DNA from: Limnochordaceae bacterium
GTDB taxonomy: Bacteria > Bacillota > Limnochordia > Limnochordales > DUMU01
Assembly (NCBI GenBank): GCA_014896305.1
Contig: JADBKQ010000006.1
Span: 78,850-142,849, forward strand
DNA length: 64,000 nucleotides
Direction: 5' to 3'
Position numbers and translations under genes: made by a program. The notes under the pieces are model-generated. The model saw nothing but the letters and a program-made list of their open reading frames with translations. It had not been told where the DNA came from and searched no databases. This document shows, piece by piece, positions 19,446-44,050 of the stretch. How positions within the stretch are numbered: the first letter of the stretch is position 1; each line of letters begins with the position of its first letter.

Positions 19446-19603
19446 TCCTGTACGATGATGTCTCAGGTTCGGCTGCGGGTCCGCTCGTACCTGCGAGAAC
19501 GCCCAGCGTTTGCAGAGCTTAAGCCTGTCTGTCTCTATGTGCCAGAGCGCGTACAGATTCGGCTGGCCCGTGTGCTCATGTTAGGTTTCTCTGTGACCTG
19601 GCG

Positions 19604-20404
19604 TCAAGCCCGCTTGTCTACCAGGCGGCCAACCTTCTTGCCTTCCAGTGGGTCCGCCTCATTGACAGTACACCGCTGGATGTATCGGTTCGAGATGGCT
19701 GTTAACTCGACTAGAACAGGATCGTCCGGATCCACCTGCCGGAGGGGGAGCAGAGATGCGACCTCTTTGAGCTTTTGCTGCATTTGCCGGGGGGTGAGGT
19801 CGGTGGCCGTAATGATGATCAGATGAATCTGGTGCTGCTGACTCATGCCCGATTTCGCGTAATCGTACAGGATCTGTCGCTTTGCCTGCTCCTCGTCGGG
19901 GTACTTGACGGTAGGCCCATAGTGCTGTGGGCCGTTGAACTCGAAAGCGACGAAGGGCGGATAGAACCGATCGAATTCTAGGATGCCCTCGGTGAGGGGA
20001 TTGCGTAAGAAACCAGGTCTGGCGTTATCGATGTAGTCGATTGTCCCAATAAGAAGGTTCAGCCACTCCCGCATCAGGGCCTCCCCCAGTTGCTCGGCCT
20101 GTTGCAGCCGCCGGTGCATCTTCTTAAGCTCTTCCAGGCGCTGCTCGCGCCATCGATCGTGCAGATGCCAGTGGGTTATCTTGCCAGAACGCCGTTCGAT
20201 TGACAGCCAGCCTGTCTCTAACAGCCGTCGTATGTAACGCCGCACGGCGGGGCGCGAAACCCCCAAGCACCTGGCCATCTGAGCATTGCTAATGGCGAGC
20301 TTACCGTCGCGGCCGGCCTGTCTGGTCATCCAAATGTAGAAATACTGGGCCATGACGGGGAGATCACCATCAAGCAGGTGGTAAGGCACTTTCACAGCAT
20401 CCAT
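19604..20404 (-). CDS. Hypothetical protein: N-terminal winged-HTH plus C-terminal Vsr/DUF559-like endonuclease-fold region
   Basis: Start chosen at the ATG at 20404, which has AGGAGGG 8 nt upstream and lies downstream of a canonical promoter. HTH: ISNAQMARCLGVSRPAVRRYIRRLLETGWL. The C-terminus LEFDRFYPPFVAFEFNGPQHYG...EEQAKRQILYDYAKSG...IHLIIIT resembles the DUF559 pattern D..(hydrophobic)3-E-x-D/N-G-x2-H. GC is visibly lower than in neighbouring genes. Confidence 0.6.
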   Translation of the reverse strand: MDAVKVPYHLLDGDLPVMAQYFYIWMTRQAGRDGKLAISNAQMARCLGVSRPAVRRYIRRLLETGWLSIERRSGKITHWHLHDRWREQRLEELKKMHRRLQQAEQLGEALMREWLNLLIGTIDYIDNARPGFLRNPLTEGILEFDRFYPPFVAFEFNGPQHYGPTVKYPDEEQAKRQILYDYAKSGMSQQHQIHLIIITATDLTPRQMQQKLKEVASLLPLRQVDPDDPVLVELTAISNRYIQRCTVNEADPLEGKKVGRLVDKRA

Positions 20405-20443
20405 GCACCTTGCCCTCCTCTGCATGTCATGCCATATTTGGAT

Positions 20444-20472
20444 ATTATAACCAATCATAGCATCTAAATCAA
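20444..20472 (-). promoter_or_regulatory. Sigma70-type promoter (TTGATT-17 nt-TATAAT) for the wHTH/nuclease-like gene
   Basis: The minus strand reads TTGATTtagatgctatgattggtTATAAT. The -35 is at 20472-20467 and the -10 at 20449-20444. Confidence 0.55.
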
Positions 20473-20487
20473 ACTCAGATCAAGCCC

Positions 20488-21040
20488 TTGCGGCCGGTGC
20501 GAGGACACAGAGTGCCGTGGCTGAAGCTATCGGCGGAGACCCCGCCTGCTGCACATTCGGCAGGATGCGAGGATACAGAGTGCTATGGCTGTAGGGCGAT
20601 TGTCTGGCACCCACCGGGTTCGGAGCGACGCGCCGTCCGTTGTTAGGCGTGACCGACCCAAACCCGGCAGATGGAAAAATAGTTGCCCGTCCAGAAGGCC
20701 AAAGACAGGAAATCAAATTGCCAGCACCCCCTCGAAGTCGGTCGGAGCGACCGAAGGGCTTTGCGCTTTGCAGCTAGGGCTGGCCGGAAGCAGGGGGAAT
20801 GCCTTGGGGGGGAGGAGGGCTGAGGTTCGCCCGGAAGAGAGACTCCTCGTCTAGCAGCAGCTAAGGTTTGCGCAGCTACAGCTCTGTCGCGTGCTAGCTG
20901 GGATTTTGGAGTCCGGCAGGTGGGAGCAGACGGCTGGTGGCAATATAATTGCCGACTAGTCCTCCGAGGGATGGGTATTATTTTTTCCACCTAATCTTTG
21001 GTCGCCCGGGTCAACGGTCTAGCCGGGCGATCGCGCATGG
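20488..21040. repeat. Conserved non-coding element, copy A (candidate structured RNA; family not recognised)
   Basis: Colinear with 36130-36612 through at least 8 near-identical blocks. Hairpins are conserved. No conserved ORF. The 5' part holds an internal direct repeat (20488-20523 / 20556-20591). Confidence 0.6.
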
Positions 21041-21378
21041 TGGCCGGCACCTTCTTTTGGCCGCCCGGCTGAACGACATCCTGCCCATCCACGCCGGTTG
21101 GTCAGGTCGAAATGCCCGTACGAACGGGCGCACACTGTATGCCTGTGCCTGCATCAGGACTGTGGGGTGCTCGAACTGGCTTTGGTCGGCAAGGGGGCAG
21201 GAACCCTGCCTTTGGGGGCTCGCTTCCAGTAGTCAAGGGCAGGGTGTGAGTAAAGTGTTTGTGGGTTCCAGTTGATCCCTCCCGCGGGAGGGGGAGGCCA
21301 GGGATTGGGCGCAGGTGTGGATCCCGCGCGGGGCGCAAAGCCCGGGGGTTCAGACCGAGCCCAGGGCAGGAGTGGTGA

Positions 21379-21407
21379 TTGACAGGGGCAGAAGAAGCGG
21401 GTATTAT
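21379..21407 (+). promoter_or_regulatory. Sigma70-type promoter candidate (TTGACA-17 nt-TATTAT) upstream of the T-box leader
   Basis: TTGACA at 21379-21384, a 17-nt spacer, then TATTAT at 21402-21407. Confidence 0.5.
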
Positions 21408-21519
21408 CACGGTTAATCTCTCCTCTGATATGGGCGGCTATTGCCGTCCTGGTCTGAGGGGATGTTTGAGCTTCGTCGGAGTCCAACGCCAGGGTTGACA
21501 ATGCCATCTCATAGAGACG

Positions 21520-22040
21520 TTGAAGGGGAGGAGTAGCTGGCCAACGGGCGTCCAGAGAGGCGGCGATCGGTGGGAAGCCGCTGCGCCAAGGGCTAGTGAA
21601 GTTCGCCCCGGAGTCGCAGGCTGAAGTCGCCGGCCAGCATGTGCATGATATGCAGGCCCAGCTTATACGGCTGGTGATGGGCTAGGGGGCGATGGGTAGG
21701 CCGAGCCGGACCTCTGCCGTTACACAGAGCAGATCTCGCCAGTAATATGTCCTGGCAGCACGTGTCTACGGGCACAGAGCCTGACAAAGCCTGATCAGCT
21801 TGTCAGCTTGATGGCTTTCGGAAACGGGTGGCCCAAGGGCATAGCGGGCGGTATCTGATAACAAGGCTGTACAAGAGAGCGGTCGACAGGCCCGTGACCT
21901 ATCGAGTGTGGCAAGAAAGCTCGAGCCTGGGCTGAACGCCGTTGCCAGTGTGCCTGGGTTGTACCTGGGTTGTACAGCGAAGTCGGGTGGTACCACGGGG
22001 AAGACCTCGTCCTGAAGCAAGGACGGGGTTTTCTTTTTTC
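21520..22040 (+). promoter_or_regulatory. T-box riboswitch leader (unusually long, possibly composite) controlling aroF
   Basis: Stem I elements: UGAAGGGGAGGAGUAG, an AGAGAG bulge (21554-21559), distal-loop GGUGGGAA (21569-21576), and specifier-loop GUGAAG-UUC-G (UUC at 21602-21604). F-box-like CCGTTA near 21713. Canonical T-box sequence GGGTGGTACCACGGGG at 21985-22000. Terminator hairpin plus T-run at 22005-22040. Confidence 0.8.
22005..22040 (+). terminator. T-box terminator hairpin
   Basis: CCTCGTCCT-gaagca-AGGACGGGG (9 bp) is followed by TTTTCTTTTTTC. Confidence 0.75.
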
Positions 22041-22347
22041 GGCTTGTGTTTCGCACCGTGGCCTGGCTACCACGATGGCGGCGGCGGCAGTGGCAGTTAC
22101 GGTGGCGATGGCGGTAGGGTAGTAGCTCCGGCGACGATGGCGGAGATGGCGGTGGTGGCAGTTCTGGCCGTGTGACGCGGCGCGGGCAGTGCAGGGGGAC
22201 TGGGACGTTGTCGTGGGCTGGGACGATGATGCCTGCTGGGGCGATGACATCTCCCTCGAACGATGGCCGATGACGTCCGGGGACGTCGGGCAGTGGATGG
22301 ACGGACGACAGATCAGTCTTGCTGACGACAGCGAGGAGGCGGTGGCT

Positions 22348-23391
22348 GTGATCATCGTGATGCGGCCGGGGGCGTCGCAAGAGCAAGTAGAGGCGGTGCA
22401 ACAGCGGTTGGCGGCGCTGGGGTTTGCGGGGCATCCGATTTATGGTGACCATCAAGTCGTGATCGGCGCTATCGGGGCTAAGCCCCTGCCGGACCTGGAG
22501 GTCTTGGAGGAGCTACCAGGAGTGGAACGGGTCGTACGAGTCATGCACCCGTTCAAGCTGGTGAGTCGTGAGGTGAACCCGGCCGGCAGCGTGGTCATGG
22601 TTGGGGATGTGCCCGTCGGGGGCCGGCAACTGGCGGTCATCGCTGGCCCGTGTGCGGTGGAAAGCGAAGCGCAGCTGATGGAGACCGTCACTGCGGTCCG
22701 GGCGGCGGGCGCAAACCTATTACGGGGCGGGGCGTTCAAGCCGCGCAGTTCGCCCTACAGCTTCCAGGGAATGGGCGAAGAGGCGCTCAAGCTGCTGGCA
22801 GCGGCACGGGAGAAGACCGGTCTTCCCGTAGTGACGGAAGTGCTGGCCGTGCGCCAGGTGGAGCTGGTGGCGCAATATGCGGATGCGCTGCAGATCGGCG
22901 CCCGCAACATGCAGAACTTTGAATTGCTGCGTGAGGTGGGCCGCCAGAGCAAGCCGGTGTTGCTCAAGCGAGGAATGTCGGCCACGATCGAAGAGTGGCT
23001 GATGGCGGCAGAGTACATCGTCAACGAAGGCAATCAGAACGTAATTCTGGTGGAGCGAGGCATTCGCACGTTCGAGCCGGCCACCCGCAGCACGCTGGAT
23101 GTTAGTGCGGTCGTGGTTGCACGTGGGCTGACGCACTTGCCGATCCTGGTCGATCCCAGCCACGCGGCCGGCAAGTGGCAGTGGGTGTCGGGACTGGCCC
23201 GAGCCGGGGTGGCGGCCGGAGCGGATGGTCTCATGGTCGAGGTTCATCCCCATCCGGAACAGGCGCTCTCTGACGGACCACAGGCCCTTACCCCGCCCGT
23301 TTTCACTGAACTGATGCGCAGCCTCGCCCCCCTGGCGCAGGCGGTGGGGCGTTCGTTGCCCCAGAGGCATCCGGTGGCGGCGGCTGTCTGA
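22348..23391 (+). CDS. aroF: 3-deoxy-7-phosphoheptulonate (DAHP) synthase, type I-beta with N-terminal ferredoxin-like regulatory domain
   Basis: GAGGAGG lies 8 nt upstream of the GTG at 22348, giving VIIVMRPG..., which parallels the Thermotoga-type N-terminus. Core motifs: IAGPCAVES, LRGGAFKPRSSPYSFQG, IGARNMQNF, KPVLLKRG, LVDPSH. The ORF is open from 22189, but that extension has no support. Confidence 0.9.
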   Translation: MIIVMRPGASQEQVEAVQQRLAALGFAGHPIYGDHQVVIGAIGAKPLPDLEVLEELPGVERVVRVMHPFKLVSREVNPAGSVVMVGDVPVGGRQLAVIAGPCAVESEAQLMETVTAVRAAGANLLRGGAFKPRSSPYSFQGMGEEALKLLAAAREKTGLPVVTEVLAVRQVELVAQYADALQIGARNMQNFELLREVGRQSKPVLLKRGMSATIEEWLMAAEYIVNEGNQNVILVERGIRTFEPATRSTLDVSAVVVARGLTHLPILVDPSHAAGKWQWVSGLARAGVAAGADGLMVEVHPHPEQALSDGPQALTPPVFTELMRSLAPLAQAVGRSLPQRHPVAAAV

Positions 23392-27697: not shown

Positions 27698-29152
27698 ATG
27701 GACGATGCTCACAACCTGAATAATACTCGCAACCTGGACGACGCCCGCAATATGGGCCATACCCGCAGCACGGAGGGGGACGACCCCCGGCCCACGGACA
27801 ACGCCCGCAACACGGACAGCCCACGACCCCCGAACGACGCTCGCGATACGGACAAAAACGGAACGCCGAACCTGCCGTCTTCACAGGTCCTCTTGACGGA
27901 ATCCGTAGCGGACAAACTCATCCGGTATGCTCAGGTGGAAAGCACCTCCAGTGACGAAGGGGAAGGGGTGCCCAGCACACCGCAGCAGTGGCAGATGGCC
28001 CGCCTGCTGTCGGCCGAACTCCAGGCGATGGGCCTGGAAAAAGTGGAGGTCGACCGCTACGGCATCGTAATGGCGACCCTGCCGGCCAATCCTGCAGATT
28101 TGAAAGCGCCCGTGGTGGGGCTGATTGCCCACTATGATACCGTACCTCGGGTGCCGGGGGCGGGAGTACGACCCATCATGCACCATCACTACGATGGTGG
28201 CGAAATCCAGCTGTCCGGCAGTGGCACGGTGCTCAGTCCGCAGGATTGCCCGCTGCTCAACGAAGTGGTGGGGCATGACATTATCACGTCGGACGGTACG
28301 ACCCTGCTGGGGGCGGACGACAAGGCAGGCGTGGCGGATATCATGGCTGCGCTTTGCCAGTTTCTGACCCATCCGGAATGGCGGCACGGGACGATCAAGG
28401 TGGCGTTCACGCCAGATGAGGAGACCGGCCGGGGCGTGGAGTTTTTCGATGTTGCCCGCTTTGGTGCCGACTTTGCCTATACCGTAGATGGCGGAGAGCT
28501 GGGCGAATTGGAAGCGGAGAGCTTCGAGGCGGAGAACCTCGAGATCCGCCTCACCGGTCGCAGTGCTCACACCGGTTCTGCCCGTGGGGTGATGATCAAC
28601 GCCCTGCACCTGGCATCTACCCTGATTGCCGCCATTCCCGCCACGCAGCGGCCGGAGACCACCGACGGGCGACTGGGGTTTCTCCATCCCGAACGCCTCG
28701 ACGGGAATGTGGAGCAAGCCCGCCTGTTAGTGCTGGTGCGAGACTTTACCGTGGCCGGCCTGGAAGCCAAGAAGGAGTACCTGCGAACCAGCCTGGACGC
28801 ACTGATGGCGGCGTACCCTGGCGCAACGTACGAGATCCGCCGGGTAGGGGGCTATCACAACATGGCCTCCGAGTTGGCGAAGGAACCACGGCTGGTGGAG
28901 CTGGCTGCCCAGGCCATGCAGGAGCTGGGCATCCCCGTGAAACGCCGCGCCATTCGGGGAGGTACGGATGGGGCGCGCCTAACCTGCGAAGGGCTACTGA
29001 CACCGAACCTGTTCACCGGCGGGGCCAATTTCCACAGCCGGCAGGAATGGGCCTCGGTGCAGTGGATGGAACAGGCTGTGGCCGTGCTGGTACGCCTGCT
29101 GCAGCTGTGGGCGGATCAGGAGCTTCCGGTAGGACGGGCGTCCCGCCGGTAG
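27698..29152 (+). CDS. pepT: Peptidase T (M20B tripeptide aminopeptidase) with repeat-rich N-terminal extension
   Basis: GAGGAGG lies 8 nt upstream of the ATG. Motifs: LIRYAQVESTS, GLIAHYDTVP, LGADDKAGVADIM, FTPDEETGRG, GGTDGARL. The first roughly 60 aa are DDARN-like repeats. Confidence 0.85.
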   Translation: MDDAHNLNNTRNLDDARNMGHTRSTEGDDPRPTDNARNTDSPRPPNDARDTDKNGTPNLPSSQVLLTESVADKLIRYAQVESTSSDEGEGVPSTPQQWQMARLLSAELQAMGLEKVEVDRYGIVMATLPANPADLKAPVVGLIAHYDTVPRVPGAGVRPIMHHHYDGGEIQLSGSGTVLSPQDCPLLNEVVGHDIITSDGTTLLGADDKAGVADIMAALCQFLTHPEWRHGTIKVAFTPDEETGRGVEFFDVARFGADFAYTVDGGELGELEAESFEAENLEIRLTGRSAHTGSARGVMINALHLASTLIAAIPATQRPETTDGRLGFLHPERLDGNVEQARLLVLVRDFTVAGLEAKKEYLRTSLDALMAAYPGATYEIRRVGGYHNMASELAKEPRLVELAAQAMQELGIPVKRRAIRGGTDGARLTCEGLLTPNLFTGGANFHSRQEWASVQWMEQAVAVLVRLLQLWADQELPVGRASRR

Positions 29153-32891: not shown

Positions 32892-35406
32892 CTAGGATGA
32901 GGGCAACGCGGCCGTCCCCCAGGAGGGTTGTGCCGGCCAATCCTGGGATCTGGCCCAGGAACTTCCCAAACGGCTTGACCACGACTTCTTCCTCTCCCAA
33001 CAGGGCATCGACTTGCAGTGCGAGTTGCTCGTCACCGATCTGCACGATGACAGTGGGAACCTGATAGAGGGACGAACGTACCTGGTGTTCGGCCGGGGGG
33101 GTGGTTTCCCAGAGGCCGTGCAACGCAAAAAGAGGCAGGATGTCGTCCCGGTGGCGCAAGACCGGCCGGCCGTTCACCATTTGCAAAGCGGACACTTCCG
33201 GCTCGACGGCCTCCATGACGCTGTTGAGAGGAATCGCACACACGACTCCGCCAACGGAGACCAGCAACGCTCGGACGATCGCCAACGTCAGCGGCAGGCG
33301 GATGCGAAACGTGGTACCTTTTCCTTCCTCACTGTGAACGTCGACCGTGCCTCCCAGATGCTCCACGGCCCGGCCCACGACGTCCAGCCCCACTCCCCGG
33401 CCGGACACCTCAGTCACCTTGGTGCGCGTGCTGAAGCCTGGCCGGAAGAGCAAGCGCAGAAGGTCAGCGTCACTCCACTGTTGGGCCGCCTCGGGGCTCA
33501 GATCTCCCCGGGCGATAGCGACTTGGCGGATCTTCTCCCGGGAGATTCCACCGCCGTCATCGCTCACTTCCAGGTAGAAGTGGCCTTCCCGGTGATACGC
33601 GCCGACGTGAACCAGACCCTCGGCCGGCTTGCCGGCCGCCAGGCGGGTCGCTTCGTCCTCGATCCCGTGGTCCACGGCGTTACGCAGGAGGTGGAGCACG
33701 GGGTCATGCAGTTCCTCGATGAGGGACCGGTCCAGTTGGGTGTCGTTGCCGGTGATCTCCAGCCGTATCTTCTTACCCAGCAAGCGGGCGGTCTCCCGGA
33801 CAACCCGGGGGAGCTTGCGGAACAGGGAGTCGATGGGTACCATCCGCAACTGCATGACGGCATCTTGCAGGTCACCGGTCAGGCGAGACAGGTGGGCGGC
33901 GAGCTGGGAGATCTCATCGTCGCCCGTCGCATTGGCATGGTTCCAGTGGCCCTGCCCGTTCCCCTCTTCGTGTTTGTGCCCCTGTTGGCTACTGAGCAGC
34001 AAAAGCCGGTTGCGGTCAATGACGAGCTCGCCCACGAGGTTCATGAGCAGATCCAGCCACTGTACATTGACCCGAATGGTGCTCGCTTCCACGGCCGCCG
34101 CCGACCGGGAGCCGGACCCGGACGAGGAAGGGGCTCGGGGCTGCGAAGGTGCGATGTCGCTGACGCCAGCGGCGGATGGAGTTGTGCCTGAGGTGGCTGC
34201 GGGGAGGGCGTCCGGAGCGGCGGGAGGGGCCGAACCGGCCTGGCCGGCCTGAGTGGCCTGGGTGGCTGAGGTAGCTGAGGTAGCTGAGGTGGCTGAGGTG
34301 GGCGGGGTAGCGATCGGCGCCGCGCTCGGTTCAACCTGGACGGAGGCGATCTCCGGGATCTCCTGAACCGCTTGCTGCAACCTTGCAGGGGGCAGCGAAG
34401 TGCGCAGCCATACGTGCACCGGCTGTTGCCGCCAGACGGCATCACGGTCGTCATTGTCGTCACTGGCAATGAGCTGTTCCACGGTGTCGGCGGTGGGGTC
34501 GGTAGCAAGCACCTGCCCCCACTCGACGGCCCGGGTGAACAGCTGATAAATCCTCACCGCCGGAAGTCCACAATCTGGCCGTAGTTGAACTTGGAGTTTC
34601 CAGTCGGCTCTGGCGGCGTTGGAATCGTCGGTAGAGTCGGGCGTTTGCGCAGGACCGCTGGGGGCGGCCATTCCAGCGGGGTCGGTCTCGGCTGCTCCCG
34701 TACCACTGGCCGTGCCTGGCCCAAGGGTCTGAGCGGTTGTTGCTGCCTTCAGCTCCAGTTCCAGCTGAGCGACGGACGGGTCGGGGACTTCCCGCCCTCC
34801 TTGCTGGACGCCCGTGTCAAGTAGACCACGCAGGGTATCGAGGGTGCGCAGCAACAGGTCCATGACCTCTTTGTTGCCCTGCAAAAGCAGCTGCCCTTTA
34901 CGCGCTTGATCGAAGAGGGATTCGAGAGCGTGGGTGAGTGAGGCCATCTGGTGGAAACCCACCGTGGCGGAGTTTCCTTTGAGGGTATGAGCAGCCCGAA
35001 ACAGACGGTTGATGCCGTCGGGACTGGACTGCCCGGCCTCCAAGGACAACAAGAGGTCTTCGATATCCTGTAACTGCTCTTCACCCTCCTCGACGAACAG
35101 CTGAAACTCTTCTGGCGTGATCTCCAGTTGGTCGGAGGTGGTGCTGCCCTGGGCATCACTGCTGGCGGCACTCGCCCCTGACGGCGACGGGGGCCGGAGT
35201 GGCGAGGGCGATGACGGCGTCGAGGGCGTCGAAGGGGATGATGACGCCGAAGGTGAGGAAGTCGATGAAGCCGATGAAGAGGAAGGGAGATCCCGATCGA
35301 TTGGCGTTCCCACTGGGTTACGCCCCTTCCTGGGCGTTTTCAACGCCGGTCGTCTGGTCCTGGGCGAACTGTTGCAGGCTCTCCTCTTCGCCAGGGTTGA
35401 GCACAC
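32836..35406 (-). CDS. cheA: Chemotaxis histidine kinase CheA
   Basis: HPt domain RAAHTLKGNSATVGF. Dimerisation and HATPase regions: HLLRNAVDHGIE, DDGGGI, GRGVGLDVV. C-terminal CheW-like domain. There are long Ser/Pro/Ala insertions. The N-terminal start is uncertain. Confidence 0.9.
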   Translation of the reverse strand: MCSTLAKRRACNSSPRTRRPALKTPRKGRNPVGTPIDRDLPSSSSASSTSSPSASSSPSTPSTPSSPSPLRPPSPSGASAASSDAQGSTTSDQLEITPEEFQLFVEEGEEQLQDIEDLLLSLEAGQSSPDGINRLFRAAHTLKGNSATVGFHQMASLTHALESLFDQARKGQLLLQGNKEVMDLLLRTLDTLRGLLDTGVQQGGREVPDPSVAQLELELKAATTAQTLGPGTASGTGAAETDPAGMAAPSGPAQTPDSTDDSNAARADWKLQVQLRPDCGLPAVRIYQLFTRAVEWGQVLATDPTADTVEQLIASDDNDDRDAVWRQQPVHVWLRTSLPPARLQQAVQEIPEIASVQVEPSAAPIATPPTSATSATSATSATQATQAGQAGSAPPAAPDALPAATSGTTPSAAGVSDIAPSQPRAPSSSGSGSRSAAAVEASTIRVNVQWLDLLMNLVGELVIDRNRLLLLSSQQGHKHEEGNGQGHWNHANATGDDEISQLAAHLSRLTGDLQDAVMQLRMVPIDSLFRKLPRVVRETARLLGKKIRLEITGNDTQLDRSLIEELHDPVLHLLRNAVDHGIEDEATRLAAGKPAEGLVHVGAYHREGHFYLEVSDDGGGISREKIRQVAIARGDLSPEAAQQWSDADLLRLLFRPGFSTRTKVTEVSGRGVGLDVVGRAVEHLGGTVDVHSEEGKGTTFRIRLPLTLAIVRALLVSVGGVVCAIPLNSVMEAVEPEVSALQMVNGRPVLRHRDDILPLFALHGLWETTPPAEHQVRSSLYQVPTVIVQIGDEQLALQVDALLGEEEVVVKPFGKFLGQIPGLAGTTLLGDGRVALILDVPGLFAEVRTNASYLTV

Positions 35407-35872
35407 GGGTCAGGTCCAGCAGGATCACCAGGCGGTCCTCCAGTTTGAGTATCCCGGTGATGTACTCGGTGTCTACGCTGACCACGTAAGGCGACGGCGG
35501 CTCAACGGCGGCCGGGTCCACCGTCAAGACCTCGGAGACCGCGTCGACGATCATTCCGATCGTTTCTTGCCGATGTTCCACCACCATGATGCGCGTATCC
35601 CGGCCGTTTTCTGCCGGCAGGCCGAGGCGTTTGCGCAGGTCGAGGACGGGAATCACTTTGCCGCGCAGGTTGGTGACGCCTTCGATGAAGTCAGGGGTGT
35701 GCGGCACAGAAGTGATCGGCTGGAGGGCGTTGATCTCCCGCACCAGGTGGATGCTCACGCCGTATGACTCGTCTGCCAGCTTGAAAACAACGATCTGAGA
35801 CAGCCCGCCTCCTACCTTGCCCGTGCCCTTGCGGACCCCAGTTCCGGCGGCCGCTGTTTCAAAACCCGCCAT
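35318..35872 (-). CDS. cheW: Chemotaxis coupling protein CheW
   Basis: GGGGAG lies 8 nt upstream of the ATG at 35872. Core: QIVVFKLADESYGVSIHLVREI..VTNLRGKVIPVLDLRKRLGL. Confidence 0.88.
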   Translation of the reverse strand: MAGFETAAAGTGVRKGTGKVGGGLSQIVVFKLADESYGVSIHLVREINALQPITSVPHTPDFIEGVTNLRGKVIPVLDLRKRLGLPAENGRDTRIMVVEHRQETIGMIVDAVSEVLTVDPAAVEPPSPYVVSVDTEYITGILKLEDRLVILLDLTRVLNPGEEESLQQFAQDQTTGVENAQEGA

Positions 35873-36129
35873 ATGGTCATCTCCCCGAGCCGTTCTCATC
35901 TGTCTGTTGACATATTCGGCACGGCGAGGCCCGGTCTTTATGGAACGCTGCGTGGCCTGCTGGGACGGGGGCACTGCACTAAGGTTCAAAGGGAGGGATG
36001 TGAAGCTTGACCTTTGCTGAGCAAGCCTTGTTGTCCTTGGGGGGCACTGACTGAGGTGAGGCGGCTGTACGCCGAATGCCCGATACCGTCTGTTGCCCGG
36101 CATGGCAGAGGACTATGTGCGGAGCGCTG

Positions 36130-36612
36130 CCGGCTCCCACAGGTTATGCCATGGCTAAGGATTGCAGGTGGTTTGTCTACACCCGAGTTCCGAGCGAAAC
36201 CGTCACCCGACTCCCAGGAGGGTAGTCTTGGGGATGCCGATGTAGACTGATGTAGACTCCAGGAAGGTGGAAAAAAAGTTGCCCACCCAAAGAGGCGGAG
36301 GTAGGAAATTTAATTGCCAGCAGCTGCTCCGAAGTCGTCTGGACAGACCGAACGGCCTTGGTCCCCCTGATCAGAGGTGGCTGTGAGCAGGGAAAACGAA
36401 CGGGAAGGCAACGGACGGCGCAGCTGAGGTTCATCCTGGATTGCTAAGGCTTGGGCAGCTAGATTGCACTAGCTGGTCTTTTGGTGTGGGGGCGGTGGGT
36501 TCAGGTGTGTGGTGGCAATATAGTTACCACCAGGTTCAGGAAAAACCGGGCAATTCTTTTGCCACCTTGACTGGGTTGCGCGGGGGTCCAGGTCTGACGG
36601 GAGAGTTTGAGC
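36130..36612. repeat. Conserved non-coding element, copy B (same family as 20488-21040)
   Basis: Colinear blocks shared with copy A, as listed in the findings. It occupies the intergenic region between the cheW start and the hydrolase stop. Confidence 0.6.
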
Positions 36613-36769
36613 ATACCCACGCCCACCTGCAGCCATCAGGCCCGCAGAGCGGTCGACGCCCGGGCGCAGGGTGATTGCGCGAGCGACATCCGCCGGCGTC
36701 GCGAAGTCTTGCAGGCCCACCTATAGCAACAGTCAGGCCCGCAGAGTTGAAGGTTCACCAGCCGGACGG

Positions 36770-37927
36770 TCAGGGCGTGGAGGCGGCTAAGAGCGGTGTT
36801 ACGGCCTGAGCGAAGGCTTCCGGCTGCTCGAGGGCGGTCAGGTGGCCTGCTTGCGGGATGCGCACCAGGCGGGCGGTGGGAATGTTGGCAGCCATGGCCG
36901 CGGCCTCGGCCGGGGGCGAGAACTGGTCTTCTTCGCCTACGATGACCACGGAAGGTACATTGATCGTGGGAAGCAGGAGGGTGGAATCGGCGCGTTGGGC
37001 CATGGCTCGGGCTGCGGCCACCAGGCCGTCGACGGAGTTTTGCAGGATCCAGGTGCGAAGCTGACCTATGAGTTCGGGACGGGCGGATCGGGTGGTGGGG
37101 CCGATTAGCCCGGGCACGAACTGGTCCACGGCAGCAGCAGCTCCCTCCGCGTGCAGGCGTTCAATGAGACGGAAGCGGTTGTCACGAGCGGACGGCGAGT
37201 CGGCGCTGGCCCTGGTGTCGGCCAGAACGAGGCCGGCAACATGCTCACGATGAAGACGCCAGAGGGCCAGGGCGATGTACCCCCCCATCGACAGCCCGGC
37301 AAAGATGGCGCGGCGGACACCAAGGCCATCCAGGAAGCGGACGATCGCGTCAGCATAGGCGTCGATAGAAGCCAGGGCGTCGATGGAAGGCAGGGCGTCG
37401 CTGGAAGCCAGCTCAACCCCATCGCTAGCTGGGTTCTCTACTTGGTCAGTACCAGGTAGAGAGCACCCATTTTTGTTGGCGTCGGACGTGCCGGCAGTTT
37501 GACTCTTGTCCGCCATGAAATCACCTCCAGGCACCGTTAGGTTGGTGTCGGACGTGCCAGCAGTTTGACTGCTGCGACTTTTGCCAAACCCAGGCAGATC
37601 GGGGGCTATCACCCGCGTTGCCTTTCCGAGCAGTTCTAGTTGTTTCGTCCACATCGCGCTATGGAGGGGGTAAGCGTGAAGCAGGACGAGGGGGGCGGAA
37701 TGGCTGCTTGTCCCCGAGTCAAGGTAAGACCAATGAATCGGGCCAAGGTCTAAGGATTTCAACGAGTACTGGGGCCATACACCAGCCTCAGGGTTACTTC
37801 CCGGATGTCTGGATGGTGATACACCGGCTTCCCGGTTGCTCTCCAGCCGCCCATGTGGTAACAAACTACTGGCCACAGGGTCACTTCCTGGCTGTCTGTG
37901 CAGCATCCGAATGGTACAAGCCTCCAT
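36770..37927 (-). CDS. Alpha/beta hydrolase with internal duplicated low-complexity insertion
   Basis: AAAGGAGG RBS lies upstream of the ATG at 37927. Motifs: LVLLHAYPLHSAMW, APDLPGFGKS, GLSMGGYIAL, QAGHL. The inserted segment SQTAGTSD..SQTAGTSD comes from a DNA duplication at about 37470-37580. Confidence 0.78.
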   Translation of the reverse strand: MEACTIRMLHRQPGSDPVASSLLPHGRLESNREAGVSPSRHPGSNPEAGVWPQYSLKSLDLGPIHWSYLDSGTSSHSAPLVLLHAYPLHSAMWTKQLELLGKATRVIAPDLPGFGKSRSSQTAGTSDTNLTVPGGDFMADKSQTAGTSDANKNGCSLPGTDQVENPASDGVELASSDALPSIDALASIDAYADAIVRFLDGLGVRRAIFAGLSMGGYIALALWRLHREHVAGLVLADTRASADSPSARDNRFRLIERLHAEGAAAAVDQFVPGLIGPTTRSARPELIGQLRTWILQNSVDGLVAAARAMAQRADSTLLLPTINVPSVVIVGEEDQFSPPAEAAAMAANIPTARLVRIPQAGHLTALEQPEAFAQAVTPLLAASTP

Positions 37928-38657
37928 AGCAAGACAAGCCTCCTTTTACTCGAGGCCTCCTTTTTCCTTCCTTCGGCCTTCCGTATCTTGCCCTGGCGAA
38001 CTGCTCACCGACGTAGCCGGTGAAGAGGGTTTTCCACTCCGACTGCCGTCCGTATCTTACCCTCGCAAACTGCTGGGCTCAACCCGGCCCCGACAGCAAC
38101 CACGCCTTCACACCCTCCAGCCACACTGTCATACGCCACTCCACTGCCTCGCAAGCATCGCCCCGAGCAGCCGACGCGCGGGATGGCGCGCTTGGCTGGA
38201 TGTCGCGTTGGGCCGGATGGTGCGCCGCACACCTTTGGCTTGTCCGAGCAGGGGCGCACGATTGACCTTTCGCTCCCCAGACACTTTCCCGACGAGGCTC
38301 GGAAGTTCGCCCCCGCTCCGGGCCGAGCGCAGGCAGCCTGGTCCGGGAAAGTGGACATGAAGTGTGAACCCCAGGCATAGATGCGGGACGACGACGCCAT
38401 TCGGAGCACCACCCCGTCTCGCATGTGTGCCGGAAGCGCTGGTAGGGGGTGTTTCGACGAAAACTCGGCCCCGGCGGCAATCCCCTGTATGATAGAATGA
38501 TGCGTCGTTGCATTGCCGGGGTACAGGGGGCGCAGGCCATCATGCCCGCCTGGGCAGTACGTGATCGGTGGTGCGTTGCCCGGGGTACAGGGGGCGCAGG
38601 GCGATACGGAGCACAGGGGGCACTCGGATCGCAGGCGTCGGAAGAAGGTGAACGTGA

Positions 38658-40661
38658 TTGAGCGAGAGGGAGCAAGCTGGCCGGCTCAACCGTACCATCC
38701 CGTCTCCGTGGGTGGCCTGGCGCGCCTATCTGCGGGCAATGGCCGTGGCCAAGCGCCACTGGCTGCGCATGGTCCTGGCCTTCGCGGGCATGCTCATCGA
38801 CAGCGTGACCATCTTGGTAGTGCCTCTGCTCTTGCGCTGGGCCATTGATATTTTGACTCATCCCGATGCTGCCGGTGGCGCGGCCGTGTCGCTGGGCGTG
38901 GGCGGGTGGCGTCTGTCTCCGGCCAGCTGGCAGCTGGCGCGCATCGCCTTGTTCAGCCTGGGGCTGGCTCTGGTACGGGCCGCCGGAATCTACCTGGAGA
39001 TTTTCATGCAGGAGTCGGTGGGCAACTGGATCGCCAGGGATCTCCGCAGCCTGCTATTCCAGAAGATGCTGCGTTTACCCTTCGCGTTCTTCGACCGTCG
39101 TCAAACCGGCGACATCATGTCCCGGCTGACGAAGGATGTCAGCGCGGTACAGGATGGCACCGGCTTCGTGGTTCTCATTACCATCGTGAACATCTTCCAG
39201 GTGGCGGGTGCCGTCGCCGCCATGCTCCTGATGGACCCCACCCTGACGCTGGTGGTACTGTTGATCGCACCCCCGGTGGCTTTGATCACGCTGGCATACA
39301 CGAAGGCCGTCAGTCCCTTGTACCGGGAGGTGGAGGCCCGTTCCGGTACGTTGCACACCGTGGCGCAGGAGAACATCTCCGGAATACGCGTGGTTAAAGC
39401 GTTTACTCGTGCCCCAGAGGAGATCGAGAAGTTCGAGAAGGAGAACGAAGCGCTCTTCACCGCCAACCTGCGCATCGCCCGGCTCAGCAGCCTCGTGGGC
39501 CCGGCTCTCGATCTGATGAGCGTTTTGCTGTCGCTGGTGATCCTGGGGTATGGGGGATACCGTGCCGCCACCGGAACGCTTGAGCTGGGGACCCTCATGG
39601 CGTTCAGTAGCTATGCGGCCTTTCTGTACTGGCCGCTGCGGCAGACGGGCTGGCTGGCCGACTTGATTAGTAAGGCCCTTGCGGGCGCAGTCCGCATCTT
39701 CGATCTTCTGGACGAGCAAGAACAGCCGCTGGGCGGTCCCGTCGCACCTGTGAACGAGGTTCGGGGACAGCTGGAGTTCCGGAATGTTTCTTTTGCCTAC
39801 AAGGACGCAGACTTCAGCGGAGTCTCTGCAGCGGCGGTGGGCGGGGCGGAAGGGACTTCTGCCTGGCAACGGCGGAACGGCGACGATGACGGGTATGCCC
39901 TGCGCGGGTTCAACCTGATCATCCGCCCTGGTGAGCGCGTGGCGATCATCGGTGGCACCGGTTCAGGCAAGACCACCGTGGCCAACCTGATTGCCCGCTT
40001 CTATGACCCTACGGCCGGCCAGGTCCTGCTGGACGGGCGAGATCTGCGGGAGTGGCCTTTGGAGCAACTGCGACGTGCCGTGGGCTTCGTCTTTCAGGAC
40101 AACTTCCTGTTTTCGCTCTCGGTGCGGGACAACATCTGCCTTGGCCTGCCGGGAGCGGATCCGGCCAAGGTGCAGGAGGCAGCCGAGGCGGCCCAGATTG
40201 CGGCTACCATTGAACGGCTGCCCCACGGCTACGACACCGTCGTAGGGGAACGGGGCATAGGGCTGTCGGGAGGGGAGCGGCAGCGCATCGCGCTGGCGAG
40301 GGCACTGCTCGTCAACCCGCCCATCCTGGTGCTGGATGATTCCACCGCCAGCCTGGATGCGCATACAGAGAACGCCGTTCAGGCGGCGCTAGACCGGCGG
40401 GCGGCGGGGCGCACTGTTGTGATCATCGCCCAGCGGGTTGCCACTGCAATGCGGGCGGACCGGATCGTGGTCATGGACAAAGGGGTTATCGTGCAGGAAG
40501 GCACCCATGCTGAGCTGGTCGCACAGGAGGGCATCTATCGTCAGCTATACCGGGAGCAGATGGCGTTGCGGGCGTCCAGGCCGGTAGGTTTGGATTCGGA
40601 TGTGGATGGGAATCTCGCTGGGGATGTGGACGCGGTCCAGGCAGCGGAGGCCGGCTGCTGA
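38658..40661 (+). CDS. ABC exporter, fused permease/ATPase (type I exporter, subunit 1 of a heterodimer)
   Basis: Six-TM domain followed by an NBD: GGTGSGKTT (Walker A), LSGGERQRIALARAL (signature), ILVLDDSTASLD (Walker B). TTG start, not verified. Confidence 0.88.
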   Translation: MSEREQAGRLNRTIPSPWVAWRAYLRAMAVAKRHWLRMVLAFAGMLIDSVTILVVPLLLRWAIDILTHPDAAGGAAVSLGVGGWRLSPASWQLARIALFSLGLALVRAAGIYLEIFMQESVGNWIARDLRSLLFQKMLRLPFAFFDRRQTGDIMSRLTKDVSAVQDGTGFVVLITIVNIFQVAGAVAAMLLMDPTLTLVVLLIAPPVALITLAYTKAVSPLYREVEARSGTLHTVAQENISGIRVVKAFTRAPEEIEKFEKENEALFTANLRIARLSSLVGPALDLMSVLLSLVILGYGGYRAATGTLELGTLMAFSSYAAFLYWPLRQTGWLADLISKALAGAVRIFDLLDEQEQPLGGPVAPVNEVRGQLEFRNVSFAYKDADFSGVSAAAVGGAEGTSAWQRRNGDDDGYALRGFNLIIRPGERVAIIGGTGSGKTTVANLIARFYDPTAGQVLLDGRDLREWPLEQLRRAVGFVFQDNFLFSLSVRDNICLGLPGADPAKVQEAAEAAQIAATIERLPHGYDTVVGERGIGLSGGERQRIALARALLVNPPILVLDDSTASLDAHTENAVQAALDRRAAGRTVVIIAQRVATAMRADRIVVMDKGVIVQEGTHAELVAQEGIYRQLYREQMALRASRPVGLDSDVDGNLAGDVDAVQAAEAGC

Positions 40662-40694
40662 GCCTGAGCGGCGTGTAAAAGGGGGTGAACAGAA

Positions 40695-42587
40695 TTGCCC
40701 GAGAACCATGATGAGCTAGAAGCAGTGGAGTCATCGGAAGCCCAGAGTGGCAGAAAGTTCACCGCCCTTTGGGCCTTCGCCCCGTACTTGCGACCACACC
40801 AGGCACACTTGGTGGGCGCAGCGACGTTGATGCTGGTCAGTGCGGCCAGTACCATGTTCTTGCCGTATGCCAGCCGAATTGCTCTTGACCAGTACATTAT
40901 TCCGCATCACCCCGAGGGCTTGCTGCAGTTCATTGTCCTGGTGGTGGCGGTGGCCGTGGTGGGGGCACTGGCAGGGACTGTGCGTGCCCGCCTGATGGCC
41001 TACGTGGGTCAGGAGTCGATTCGGAGCATCCGGCGGGACCTATTCACCCACCTTCAGCAGCTCCCGGTGGCCTTCTTTGACCGTATCCCCGTGGGGAAAG
41101 TGATGACCCGCCTTACCAGCGATGTGGATGCGTTGGCCGACCTGCTCAGTGGTACGATCATCCAGATGTTTGGCGATGCGCTGACCTTGGTAGGCTTTTT
41201 GGCCATTATGTTCGCCGTCGACTGGCGGCTGGCTCTGGTGACGGTGCTGGGTGTGCCTCCCCTGGTATTCGCCTTTTCCGTCCTGAGCGGGCGGATCCAT
41301 CGGGCTGAGGATGTTGCCCGGGAGCGAGCCTCCGCCGTTAACGCCACGTTGCAAGAGAATGTGTCCGGCATCCGGGTGATCCAGGCCTTCTGGGCCCACC
41401 GCCAGTTTGGCGAGCGTTTCGAAAGGGCCAACGAGAGCCTGTTTGCCGCGAACTTGCGGGCGCTCTTTGTGTTCGCCTTCTTCTGGCCGACGGTCGATTT
41501 CACCTGGATCAGCAGTACAGGCCTGCTCCTTTTCGCCGGTGGATACTGGGTCTTGCAGGGAACCCTCACCATCGGTACCCTATCGGCCTTCATGGGTTAC
41601 GGCGGGCAGTTTTTCGGCCCACTGCACGGGCTGTCGCAGGCGTATCGAGTGATCCAGCGGGCACTGGCGGGGGCGGTGCGAATCCAGCGGATCCTAGAGA
41701 CTCCGAATGAACGCACTGCCGGCTTGCCCAGCATGCCACCGATTCGAGGCGAGGTAGAGTTTGACCACGTTACGTTCGGATACGAGGCAGGCCGTCCGGT
41801 GTTGGCCGATGTCAACCTCCGGGCACAGCCAGGCGAGACAATCGCTCTGGTAGGGCACACCGGGGCCGGTAAGACGTCGGTGATCAATCTGCTGTGCCGG
41901 TTTTATGAACCGCAGGCCGGCACGATCCGGGTGGATGGCCAGGACATCCGCCAGGTGGATCTGGAGTCCTATCGCCGGCAGATCGCTCTGGTCTTACAGG
42001 AACCATTCCTGTTCTCCGGCACGGTACGGGAGAACCTTCGCTACGGAAACACGGAAGCGACCGACGAGCAGATGCGGGCGGCGTTGGCCGCTGCCGGCCT
42101 GGAGGACTTGCCGCTGGACCTGGTCTTGCACGAGCGGGGCGGCAACCTGTCCTCCGGCCAGCGCCAACTCCTGTCCTTCGCTCGGGCGATCCTGGCGGAT
42201 CCACGCATTCTCATCCTGGACGAGGCGACGGCGCACGTGGACACGTTGACCGAGCGCCAGGTGCAGGCGGCGATGGAACGGTTGCTGCAGGGACGGACCG
42301 CCTTCGTCATCGCTCACCGGCTTTCGACCATCCAGTCGGCCAGCCAGATCCTGGTCGTCGAGGACGGCCGGGTAGTGGAACGGGGCACCCATGCGCAGCT
42401 GCTGGCCGCCCGCGGCCGCTACTGGCGCTTCTGCCAGGAGCAAAACCTGCTGCTGAGCGAGGGCGATAACAACGGGCTGCCCGCCGAGGGCGAACGGGAT
42501 GGACGGCAGGGCGAGGGTGGCGCCGTAGGCGACCGGGTCACAGGCAAGGGGATCGCAGGCGACGTCTCTGCTGCTGCCTTCGCCTAG
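40695..42587 (+). CDS. ABC exporter, fused permease/ATPase (subunit 2)
   Basis: RBS aagggggtg. GHTGAGKTS, LSSGQRQLLSFARAIL, ILILDEATAHVD. Confidence 0.9.
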   Translation: MPENHDELEAVESSEAQSGRKFTALWAFAPYLRPHQAHLVGAATLMLVSAASTMFLPYASRIALDQYIIPHHPEGLLQFIVLVVAVAVVGALAGTVRARLMAYVGQESIRSIRRDLFTHLQQLPVAFFDRIPVGKVMTRLTSDVDALADLLSGTIIQMFGDALTLVGFLAIMFAVDWRLALVTVLGVPPLVFAFSVLSGRIHRAEDVARERASAVNATLQENVSGIRVIQAFWAHRQFGERFERANESLFAANLRALFVFAFFWPTVDFTWISSTGLLLFAGGYWVLQGTLTIGTLSAFMGYGGQFFGPLHGLSQAYRVIQRALAGAVRIQRILETPNERTAGLPSMPPIRGEVEFDHVTFGYEAGRPVLADVNLRAQPGETIALVGHTGAGKTSVINLLCRFYEPQAGTIRVDGQDIRQVDLESYRRQIALVLQEPFLFSGTVRENLRYGNTEATDEQMRAALAAAGLEDLPLDLVLHERGGNLSSGQRQLLSFARAILADPRILILDEATAHVDTLTERQVQAAMERLLQGRTAFVIAHRLSTIQSASQILVVEDGRVVERGTHAQLLAARGRYWRFCQEQNLLLSEGDNNGLPAEGERDGRQGEGGAVGDRVTGKGIAGDVSAAAFA

Positions 42588-42673
42588 ACGACAGGATGCA
42601 AGGAGTGTGCGGCGAACTTCCCAATGCCTTGGAATCGGAACCGGGTGCAGCCCTGGCAAAGGGAGGGTTCGAA

Positions 42674-44050
42674 GTGAAGCTCCGGTGCAAAGTGACGTCC
42701 GTTGTTGTGGCGAATCTGCTCATGGTAGCGACGGTAGCTGGGTTCTGCTTGAACGTGTTCCCTCCGGCAACAAGTACAGGGATGGCTCTAGCGGCTGCGC
42801 ACAAGCCAGTGACCATTCGCTTTTGGAACTGGTGGGACGCTTCCCGTGAACCCCTGATGAACGAAGTGATCCGGCGCTTCCAGGAAAAGTACCCGTGGAT
42901 CACGGTCAAAAGTCAGGTGGACGGCTGGTCGGGACGGACCGCCAAGGTGCTGGCAGCTTACGCCGCCGGCGCCCCGGCAGACCTGACGATGGTCACCCGG
43001 GCTGAACTGGCTTCCCTGGCCGACCTGGGGGCAATCACGCCGATCACCGACTGGGTGAAGCGGGATAAGCTTGACCTGACACAGTTTTTTGCGGCCGAGG
43101 TCGAGGCTTTCTACTGGGACGGGCAGCTTTGGAGTCTGCCCTTGCCGACGGTATCAGGCGAAGGCAGCATGTACTACTACAACAAAGATCTGTTCGAAAG
43201 AGCGGGGCTGGATCCGGATCACCCTCCGCTCACGTGGCGGGCCTTCGCCGAGACCGCGCGCAAGCTGACGTTGCGCGACGACACCGGTCGTATCCGTCAA
43301 CTGGGAATGGACACGTTTCCGCAGCTGTGGGTTCATCTGTTGTACTCGAACGGCGGTGAACTCCTTTCGTCGGATCGGCGGCACGTTCAAGCCGACACCG
43401 AGCGGGGGCGTGAGGCATTGCGTTACGCGGTCGATTTGACCCAAAAGTTATTGGGAGGATCGGCCGCGATGGGCCAGTTTCTGGCCGGGACGACACCGGC
43501 CATTGCCTTTGCCCAGGGACGTCAGGCGATCGTCCAGGGGCATCCCAGTGTGATGGCGGTGATTCTGCAGAACGCGCCCGCCGGCTTTCGGTGGGGGGTC
43601 ATGCCGGCGCCGTACAACGACCAGCGGCCGGAGGCAAAGTCGCGAGGCATTGCCGGATTCCAGTGGGGCTGGGGATACGCCATTCCCAAAGGACTTCCGC
43701 CAGAACGGGAAGAGGCAGCCTGGCTCTTTCTGAAATTCATCACCGCGGATGAGCAAGGCGCTGGCTATTTCCTGGTCAAGCAAGGTCGACCGGCCTCGGT
43801 GATTCGGTTCAACCTCAACCCGGAGTATTCCAAGATTGTGGGGCCGAATTGGCCCCTCATCATCAAATACCTCGGCAATGACGTGGCGTTTCCAGCACTG
43901 CCCGTGATGGGGGATATCTTTAACAAGCTAGTGGAGCGTTCTTACGCCCCCATGGGCGGGACGGTGGAGCCCGATAACGCTTTGCAGGGGATCCAGACGG
44001 ACCTGCAGCGCATCGTCGACGACTACTGGGCCAAGCGTAACAAGAGTTAA
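42674..44050 (+). CDS. ABC transporter solute-binding protein (family 1), no adjacent permeases
   Basis: AAGGGAGGG lies 6 nt upstream of the GTG at 42674. Signal/anchor-like VVVANLLMVATVAGFCL. The body is typical of sugar SBPs. Confidence 0.8.
   Translation: MKLRCKVTSVVVANLLMVATVAGFCLNVFPPATSTGMALAAAHKPVTIRFWNWWDASREPLMNEVIRRFQEKYPWITVKSQVDGWSGRTAKVLAAYAAGAPADLTMVTRAELASLADLGAITPITDWVKRDKLDLTQFFAAEVEAFYWDGQLWSLPLPTVSGEGSMYYYNKDLFERAGLDPDHPPLTWRAFAETARKLTLRDDTGRIRQLGMDTFPQLWVHLLYSNGGELLSSDRRHVQADTERGREALRYAVDLTQKLLGGSAAMGQFLAGTTPAIAFAQGRQAIVQGHPSVMAVILQNAPAGFRWGVMPAPYNDQRPEAKSRGIAGFQWGWGYAIPKGLPPEREEAAWLFLKFITADEQGAGYFLVKQGRPASVIRFNLNPEYSKIVGPNWPLIIKYLGNDVAFPALPVMGDIFNKLVERSYAPMGGTVEPDNALQGIQTDLQRIVDDYWAKRNKS

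Follow-up and report, generated by a model that had tools for sequence, protein, structure and literature searches.

Operator- or iteron-type arrays of repeated sites upstream of the gene of their own binding protein are known for looping-operator repressors, plasmid Rep proteins (iterons), parC/ParR-type centromere-operators and the controllers of restriction-modification systems (C-boxes). Here we describe a non-coding element of comparable organization in a 64,000-nt stretch of DNA (the window) from a Limnochordaceae bacterium (assembly GCA_014896305.1, contig JADBKQ010000006.1, positions 78,850 to 142,849). The element is present in two copies. Copy A adjoins the gene of a putative winged-helix nuclease, and copy B lies upstream of the chemotaxis operon cheW-cheA-cheC-cheD-cheB-cheR. 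On balance, with a little better than even confidence, we read copy A as the resident array of the nuclease gene and copy B as an orphan duplicate of this predicted protein-binding array. The features on which this reading is built are as follows.

19604-20404, minus strand: gene of a 266-aa protein, the proposed binder, with a winged-helix (HTH_36/MarR-like) N-terminus and a Vsr/DUF559-like nuclease C-terminus (Pfam, PHROGs, AlphaFold2 (AF2), BFVD)
20444-20472, minus strand: sigma-70-like promoter TTGATT-17-TATAAT, between copy A and the start codon of the nuclease gene
20663-21030, no strand assigned: core of copy A, with sites S1 to S4 at 20669-20688, 20707-20726, 20935-20954 and 20973-20992
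36259-36604, no strand assigned: core of copy B, firmly homologous to copy A (local alignment to 20663-21030; nhmmer E=1e-132)
36265-36284, plus strand: S1 of copy B, outer left site, AGGTGGAAAAAAAGTTGCCC (pattern; inverted repeat with S4, 86% complementary; four-way module alignment)
36303-36322, plus strand: S2 of copy B, inner left site, AGGAAATTTAATTGCCAGCA, 35 bp from S1 (pattern, module alignment, inverted repeat)
36510-36530, no strand assigned: S3 of copy B, inner right site, a near-palindrome, TGGTGGCAATATAGTTACCAC (pattern, module alignment, inverted repeat)
36548-36568, minus strand: S4 of copy B, outer right site, AAGGTGGCAAAAGAATTGCCC on the minus strand, 35 bp from S3 (pattern, module alignment, inverted repeat)

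The proposed binder can be compared with I-Bth0305I, a homing endonuclease of the EDxHD (Vsr-like) family, which according to the excerpted text of PMC3239194 combines an N-terminal helix-turn-helix (HTH)-type DNA-binding region with a C-terminal Vsr-like nuclease domain. The predicted architecture of the 19604-20404 protein is similar, joining an N-terminal HTH-type region to a C-terminal Vsr-like domain. It has the invariant Asp, Asn, His and Asp (D145, N157, H161, D181), and its D-to-N spacing of 12 equals that of D196-N208 of I-Bth0305I as given in the same excerpt. Unlike I-Bth0305I, the 19604-20404 gene stands free in intergenic DNA, outside any intron or intein, and its product has a MarR/HTH_36-like winged helix instead of a NUMOD at the N-terminus. 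Nor does the product contain EDxHD in its literal form (ExDR...FEFNGPQH). An upstream site array, which is present at the 19604-20404 gene, is not described for the EDxHD family in the excerpt of PMC3239194.

Organization and conservation of the site array

Each copy of the element contains four GGNAA-N5-TTNCC sites of ~20 bp arranged in a 2+2 layout, with 35 bp within the pairs and 210-231 bp between them. Matches to TGGMAA-N5-TTGCC start at 36268, 36303, 36513 and 36548 in copy B and at 20672, 20707, 20938 and about 20973 in copy A. With at most one mismatch allowed, 12 of the 14 matches found in the window fall in the two copies; 2.4 were expected by chance, and no shuffle reached 14. In both copies the left module (S1 and S2) is the reverse complement of the right module (S4 and S3), gapless over ~60 nt. 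The site sequence is kept in all four modules, and the 20-nt spacers are neither conserved nor mutually complementary. Such conservation of sites with free spacers points to recognition of double-stranded DNA and not to an RNA rod. The sites of the orphan copy appear still to be constrained, since the half-sites of copies A and B are mismatched at 4 of 40 positions, compared with a mismatch rate of 34% over the remaining 300 aligned positions of the core (binomial p=5e-4).

The cores of the two copies, 36259-36604 and 20663-21030, are 69% identical over aligned columns. Overall, copy A extends over ~20560-21030 on the same strand as copy B, in agreement with the earlier note, which had pointed to a second, related copy; nhmmer over the 64-kb window found exactly these two copies and no third. 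The same note had delimited copy B as 36130-36612. The core part of this interval stands, and its left flank aligns with copy A only marginally:

36130-36258, no strand assigned: left flank of copy B, with GTCTACA at 36175 and two tandem units of GATGTAGACT

The alignment score of this flank is 49, whereas shuffled sequences score 39.5 +/- 5.4 and some of them higher. The tandem units, located at 36239-36258 by TRF and previously taken for an insertion specific to copy B, are real. However, they abut the core from within the weakly aligned flank and do not interrupt a well-aligned stretch, and the length difference of the copies around them is only 4 nt in a window-wide MAFFT alignment.

A 7-mer scan placed GTCTACA/TGTAGAC beside copy B at 36175, 36241 and 36251 in an inverted arrangement. 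The same 7-mer occurs once each upstream of two homologues of the nuclease gene (position 232 of locus L063 and about 2746 of L068), the background being 0.03 per 500 nt, and is absent from copy A and four other arrays. The right edge of copy A carries a direct repeat, TTTGG[T/C]CGCCCGG[G/C]T[C/G]AACG, at 20997-21016 and 21056-21075 (59 nt apart); its first unit contains a perfect 8-bp GC-rich hairpin, TCGCCCGG...CCGGGCGA, at 21003-21030.

The putative nuclease gene adjoining copy A

The N-terminus of the 19604-20404 protein is confidently a winged helix. It matches replication-initiator-like PHROGs, and the protein also matches homing-endonuclease-like PHROGs. The AF2 model has a predicted local distance difference test (pLDDT) score of 92. 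In a fold search against the PDB the winged helix dominates the matches, with MarR/ArsR repressors, the AspA centromere binder and a Rep protein found for the N-terminus; the C-terminal part has no sequence-level match to any solved structure. Among viral models (BFVD), the C-terminal domain matches VSR, homing and restriction endonucleases, DUF559 and DUF2726 with a root-mean-square deviation of 2.5-3.5 A over ~120 columns. Its conserved motif reads GEALMREWL...NARPGFL.NP...E[YF]DR.Y..VAFEFNGPQHYGPT...D..K, and the invariant residues D145, E155, N157, Q160, H161, D181 and K184 are all present.

The family comprises 385 clusters at 50% identity (E<=1e-30). Named members come from metagenome-assembled genomes of Bacillota and Symbiobacteriaceae. 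The genes of the family often lie on short contigs and are free-standing between ordinary metabolic genes. On viral contigs, a search for related loci found two, in which the nuclease domain alone was matched. PADLOC returned no more than weak HTH matches.

The surroundings of the gene have a G+C content of 57-59% (19000-21000) versus ~64% for the window, which is consistent with acquired DNA. On the other side of copy A, the ~1.2 kb that separate it from the DAHP (3-deoxy-D-arabino-heptulosonate 7-phosphate) synthase gene (21030-22270) contain no convincing open reading frame (ORF). A near-consensus sigma-70 promoter, TTGACA-17-TATTAT, at 21379-21407 on the plus strand faces DAHP synthase; the leader starting from it would be ~800 nt long and has no Rfam match.

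Site arrays upstream of homologous genes

Upstream of six homologues of the nuclease gene, from other genomes and from metagenome contigs, repeated sites occur in two groups and number four or, in some cases, five. The loci are listed with their protein in brackets, the site, and the spacing within, between and within the pairs.

L060 (P0131): TGGTGCA-N4-TGCACCA, 34/158/34 bp
L068 (P0132): GGCGA-N5-TCACC, 34/154/35 bp
L070 (P0152): GGTTCCA-N5-TGGAACC, 35/about 250/35-39 bp
L073 (P0121): AGGTGGC-type, nearest to the site type of the window, 35/146/44 bp
L074 (P0124): TTTTTGAMG-type, 24/178/24 bp
L066 (P0130): TTTTTGAMG-type, 24/209/24 bp

Together with copy A, these make seven loci in which repeated sites stand beside the gene of the putative binder, with five site types and a 2+2 layout at every locus. 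The sites at 2838 in L068 and at 2890 and 2964 in L070 were read by eye and not returned by the pattern scan. A generic finder of repeated 13-mers was swamped by GC-rich low complexity in the upstream regions, and spacing-restricted scans and explicit patterns were used. With explicit patterns written for each locus, the array sites are the only or nearly the only matches. An unbiased, spacing-restricted scan for pairs gave 15 pairs versus 0.9 expected in L060 and 13 versus 0.5 in L070.

The homologous arrays share with the element their layout and not their sequence or helices. Two paralogues in GCA_030018155.1 have different site types. P0124 and P0130 have both the recognition-helix motif and the site type in common, and other members differ in both, which suggests that the site type varies with the protein within a constant layout. 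Because six homologues share the 2+2 layout upstream with differing site sequences, we read the element as the cognate array of the nuclease protein. The L060 array shares a 106-kb contig with the che operon of that relative; within 28 kb around this operon the sole array is the one adjoining the nuclease gene.

The locus resembles the operator and iteron systems. Its repeated, partly palindromic sites lie at helical-scale spacing directly upstream of a gene for a DNA-binding protein; the site sequence differs between homologues and the layout is kept; and the fold matches of the N-terminus include repressors, a centromere binder and a Rep protein. In contrast to these systems, the putative binder carries a Vsr-like nuclease domain as a fusion partner, its sites form two pairs (2+2) that are 146-250 bp apart, the copy A array lies ~200 nt from the predicted promoter, and an orphan array without a gene exists.

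Searches for further copies and tests for coding and RNA

The exact element is known from its two copies, and the source lineage is represented by one sequencing run. Further copies were sought in genomes, metagenomes and viral contigs with two-site patterns, by which copies lacking such a pair of sites would be missed. Across 185,579 genomes and 241 million metagenome records these patterns recovered no genuine match: none of 48 two-site matches on genome contigs was confirmed by nhmmer, and four matches to a tighter pattern on metagenome contigs are at chance level. There was one stray match on viral contigs. No match to the element was found by blastn against plasmids and phages.

The possibility of a protein-coding element was rejected, since neither tblastx nor six-frame translation revealed an open frame shared by the copies, and stops interrupt every frame of copy B. 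A described RNA family was rejected as well: no Rfam 15 model reaches its gathering score anywhere in the window, and at E<=10 the two copies match only microRNA and long non-coding RNA models at chance level. A T-box was dropped after its lead, GGUGGUAAC in S3 of copy B, proved to be missing from copy A and no Rfam T-box match was obtained.

The che operon and its predicted promoter

Copy B occupies part of the gap between the following genes.

35318-35872, minus strand: cheW (184 aa), first gene of cheW-cheA-cheC-cheD-cheB-cheR (Pfam CheW; identical protein recorded publicly with the same start; alignment with relatives)
35913-35940, minus strand: sigma-28/FliA-type promoter-like site TAAA-N16-GCCGAATA, 41 nt upstream of the cheW ATG
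36770-37927, minus strand: alpha/beta hydrolase gene, beyond copy B as seen from cheW (Pfam Abhydrolase_1/6)

The end of the hydrolase ORF (36770) and the start of the longest cheW ORF (36103) are separated by 666 nt, as noted earlier; both coordinates were reproduced. The non-coding stretch is nevertheless taken as ~900 nt, because the cheW start at 35872 is that given for an identical protein in a public assembly, and the 77-aa N-terminal extension of the longer ORF has no counterpart in the CheW proteins of relatives (65-73% identical). The earlier description of the gap as free of convincing ORFs holds too, with stops in every frame of copy B and no frame kept between the copies. The edge of the copy B core is 386 nt upstream of the cheW start codon, and the nuclease protein, if bound there, would act from a distance of 390-690 bp upstream of this ATG. 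Two direct repeats of ~32 nt, CA[C/G]GCCCACCT..AGC..TCAGGCCCGCAGAG, follow closely downstream of the hydrolase stop codon, at 36618-36649 and 36712-36746; each can form a GC-rich hairpin and may be a terminator or a unit like a repetitive extragenic palindrome.

The pattern TAAA-N16-GCCGAATA is matched only once in all 64 kb, on the minus strand at 35940-35913. Relatives were retrieved via CheA homologues and comprise three loci from two lineages (L053, and L054 with L055, which are near-identical contigs). The relaxed pattern T[AC]AA-N16-GCCGA.. matches once per sequence in the window and in each of these loci, every time directly upstream of cheW:

L053, 9394-9421: relaxed sigma-28-type match
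L054, 9396-9423: relaxed sigma-28-type match
L055, 7343-7370: relaxed sigma-28-type match

The syntenic block of the relatives runs FGGY kinase, cheW, cheA ... cheR, PC4, FAD (flavin adenine dinucleotide) oxidase, Fer4/CCG ... DAHP synthase. Only 75-107 nt separate the FGGY kinase gene from cheW in the three loci, and nhmmer did not find the element there. In the window, a block of genes for a substrate-binding protein (SBP), two ATP-binding cassette (ABC) proteins and the hydrolase sits, with copy B, between the FGGY kinase gene and cheW. The conserved block is bracketed by the two copies, with DAHP synthase (22189-23391) on the side of copy A and cheW on the side of copy B.

Relative to L053 and L054, the region 36770-44050 with the SBP, two ABC exporter-type genes and the hydrolase is an insertion. 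An M20 peptidase gene at 27698-29152 on the plus strand, between cheR and the PC4-like gene, is likewise extra.

A sigma-28-type promoter of its own, at 35940-35913 and so downstream of the element, most likely drives the che operon. This putative site lies downstream of position 36130, and a cheW transcription start in that region had been named as half of what would count against the leader proposal.

Proposed function of the array

We infer from adjacency and co-variation that the 19604-20404 protein binds S1-S4. In the model that we propose, the winged-helix protein would occupy the sites as dimers and bind cooperatively within each pair, and the pairs could be bridged by looping. At copy A this would allow tight autoregulation of a potentially toxic nuclease. 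Copy B would serve as a second genomic binding locus, which may titrate the protein or act on the neighboring genes. By analogy with operator and iteron systems, autoregulation, looping or a cis site for nuclease-driven spread are all possible functions of the array. We also consider, as a speculative and rather improbable extension, that the nuclease gene and its 2+2 array are a previously undescribed selfish or mobile cassette, in which the nuclease would recognise the array as a cis module for its own spread, by homing or nuclease-driven copying.

Several observations weigh against the assignment of the arrays to the nuclease. No gene or pseudogene of the nuclease was found beside copy B, and the upkeep of this copy therefore needs another reason, unless the duplication is recent relative to the constraint test. 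The end of the copy A array is ~200 nt upstream of the predicted sigma-70-like promoter, which is far for simple operator occlusion. One homologue, at L063, has no clear 2+2 array. Site orientation varies by subfamily, being direct in L074 and L066, palindromic in L060 and mixed in L073. The site patterns of the homologues were written after inspection, so that their shuffle expectations are optimistic and only indicative. Finally, there is a hint of an RNA feature in a hairpin located between S1 and S2: on the minus strand, CCTRYCT/GGRYGGG stays paired despite two double substitutions and precedes CAACT(T)7, and its two G-U pairs exist on this strand only, the other strand having C-A.

Alternative explanations

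Transposons and miniature inverted-repeat transposable elements (MITEs) with several binding sites at each end are known, such as the inverted repeat-direct repeat ends of IS630/Tc1 and the ends of IS21 and Tn7. The element could be a decayed non-autonomous MITE-like element, in which the ~60-bp inverted modules were transposase-binding ends of this style and the copies independent insertions. It is indeed non-coding and ~350 bp long, with nested inverted modules of two sites each, an internal spacing fixed at 35 bp in both copies, and two copies before unrelated genes at synteny breaks with relatives. The right end of copy B reads CAGTCAAGGTGGCAAAAG, which may resemble Tc1/IS630 termini. Nevertheless, no target-site duplication was seen at any plausible boundary of either copy, and homology between the copies continues ~40 nt past S4, which makes it unlikely that the element terminates in the inverted modules. 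Neither a parent nor a further copy was recovered from the window or from the genome, metagenome, plasmid and phage searches described above, and no transposase was recognised among ~20 flanking ORFs scanned in the window. Nor does a MITE predict a fixed upstream layout with co-varying sites that is tied to one gene family. We regard a MITE origin as unlikely. An independent gene for a structured or small RNA (sRNA), or a cis-acting RNA, could account for the hairpin described above, which with its T-run overlaps S1 and could form the 3' end of an sRNA on the minus strand; on the plus strand such an end could be formed by CAGCTAG...CTAGCTG and TTTT, a hairpin also kept in both copies. The fold z-score of copy B on the minus strand is -2.7. 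However, the other three combinations of strand and copy give -1.3, -1.0 and -0.35, and no Rfam match supports an RNA. With two sequences only, covariation is inseparable from chance, and alifold counts are alike on both strands (13 versus 15). The strongest conservation is that of the site sequence in both orientations and not of pairing, and the arrays of other genomes do not retain the helices. We consider an RNA gene or a cis-acting RNA quite unlikely. The evidence favors protein-binding DNA over both an sRNA and a classical MITE. The earlier suggestion of a portable promoter or leader module, sRNA gene or mobile element survives in part, as the element looks like a portable module other than a riboswitch, namely a duplicated site array of a putative nuclease gene; the form favored here is protein-binding DNA.

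The position of copy B upstream of motility genes raises two further explanations. In the excerpted text of PMC5386303, the flagellar switch of C. difficile is an invertible element upstream of flgB, and copy B similarly presents a short segment flanked by inverted repeats in front of a chemotaxis operon. Phase variation could operate here if the modules were recombination sites around a promoter or terminator segment of ~200 bp; inverted repeats do surround ~190-260 bp, and terminator-like features face outward on both sides. Unlike the C. difficile switch, the locus has no tyrosine or serine recombinase recognised among the ~20 flanking ORFs scanned, the putative che promoter is outside the segment, and copies A and B are collinear throughout, with no sign of two orientations. 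In two subfamilies of homologous arrays, moreover, all four sites are direct. An invertible switch is thus highly improbable. We give as little credence to the proposal of the earlier note that copy B is part of a very long conserved 5' leader of the che operon, transcribed from a promoter upstream of the element, or to its variant in which the sites are sigma-54 promoters (GG-N10-GC). The element does lie upstream of cheW with no intervening ORF, the GG-N10-GC spacing fits all of its sites, and S4 of copy B, TGGCAAAAGAATTGCC, is oriented toward cheW. The leader proposal is not supported, because the conserved sigma-28-type site lies between the element and cheW and relatives with 75-107 nt upstream of cheW lack the element; in addition, copy A precedes an unrelated gene with its own sigma-70-like promoter, and Rfam offers no match. 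Copy B is accordingly not regarded as a che leader. A cluster of sigma-54 promoters is unlikely too. A promoter of this kind has one TGGCAC-N5-TTGCW site, with its GG and GC 12 nt apart, whereas each copy has four boxes that face in both directions; the -12 GC is missing from S4 of copy A, the sites read TTGCC and not TTGCW, and the homologous arrays do not fit GG-N10-GC (for example, TTTTTGAAGGAC).

Implications

For the che operon the outcome is deflationary: its promoter is probably of the ordinary FliA type, and no exotic leader has to be invoked. The orphan array by cheW is a natural test case for the action of an array at a distance from its gene. If the cassette reading is true, orphan arrays like copy B would be footprints or landing pads able to rewire nearby operons. 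More generally, a sizeable uncharacterised family of winged-helix/Vsr-like proteins with putative cognate 2+2 arrays may be a ready-made set of orthogonal protein-DNA pairs.

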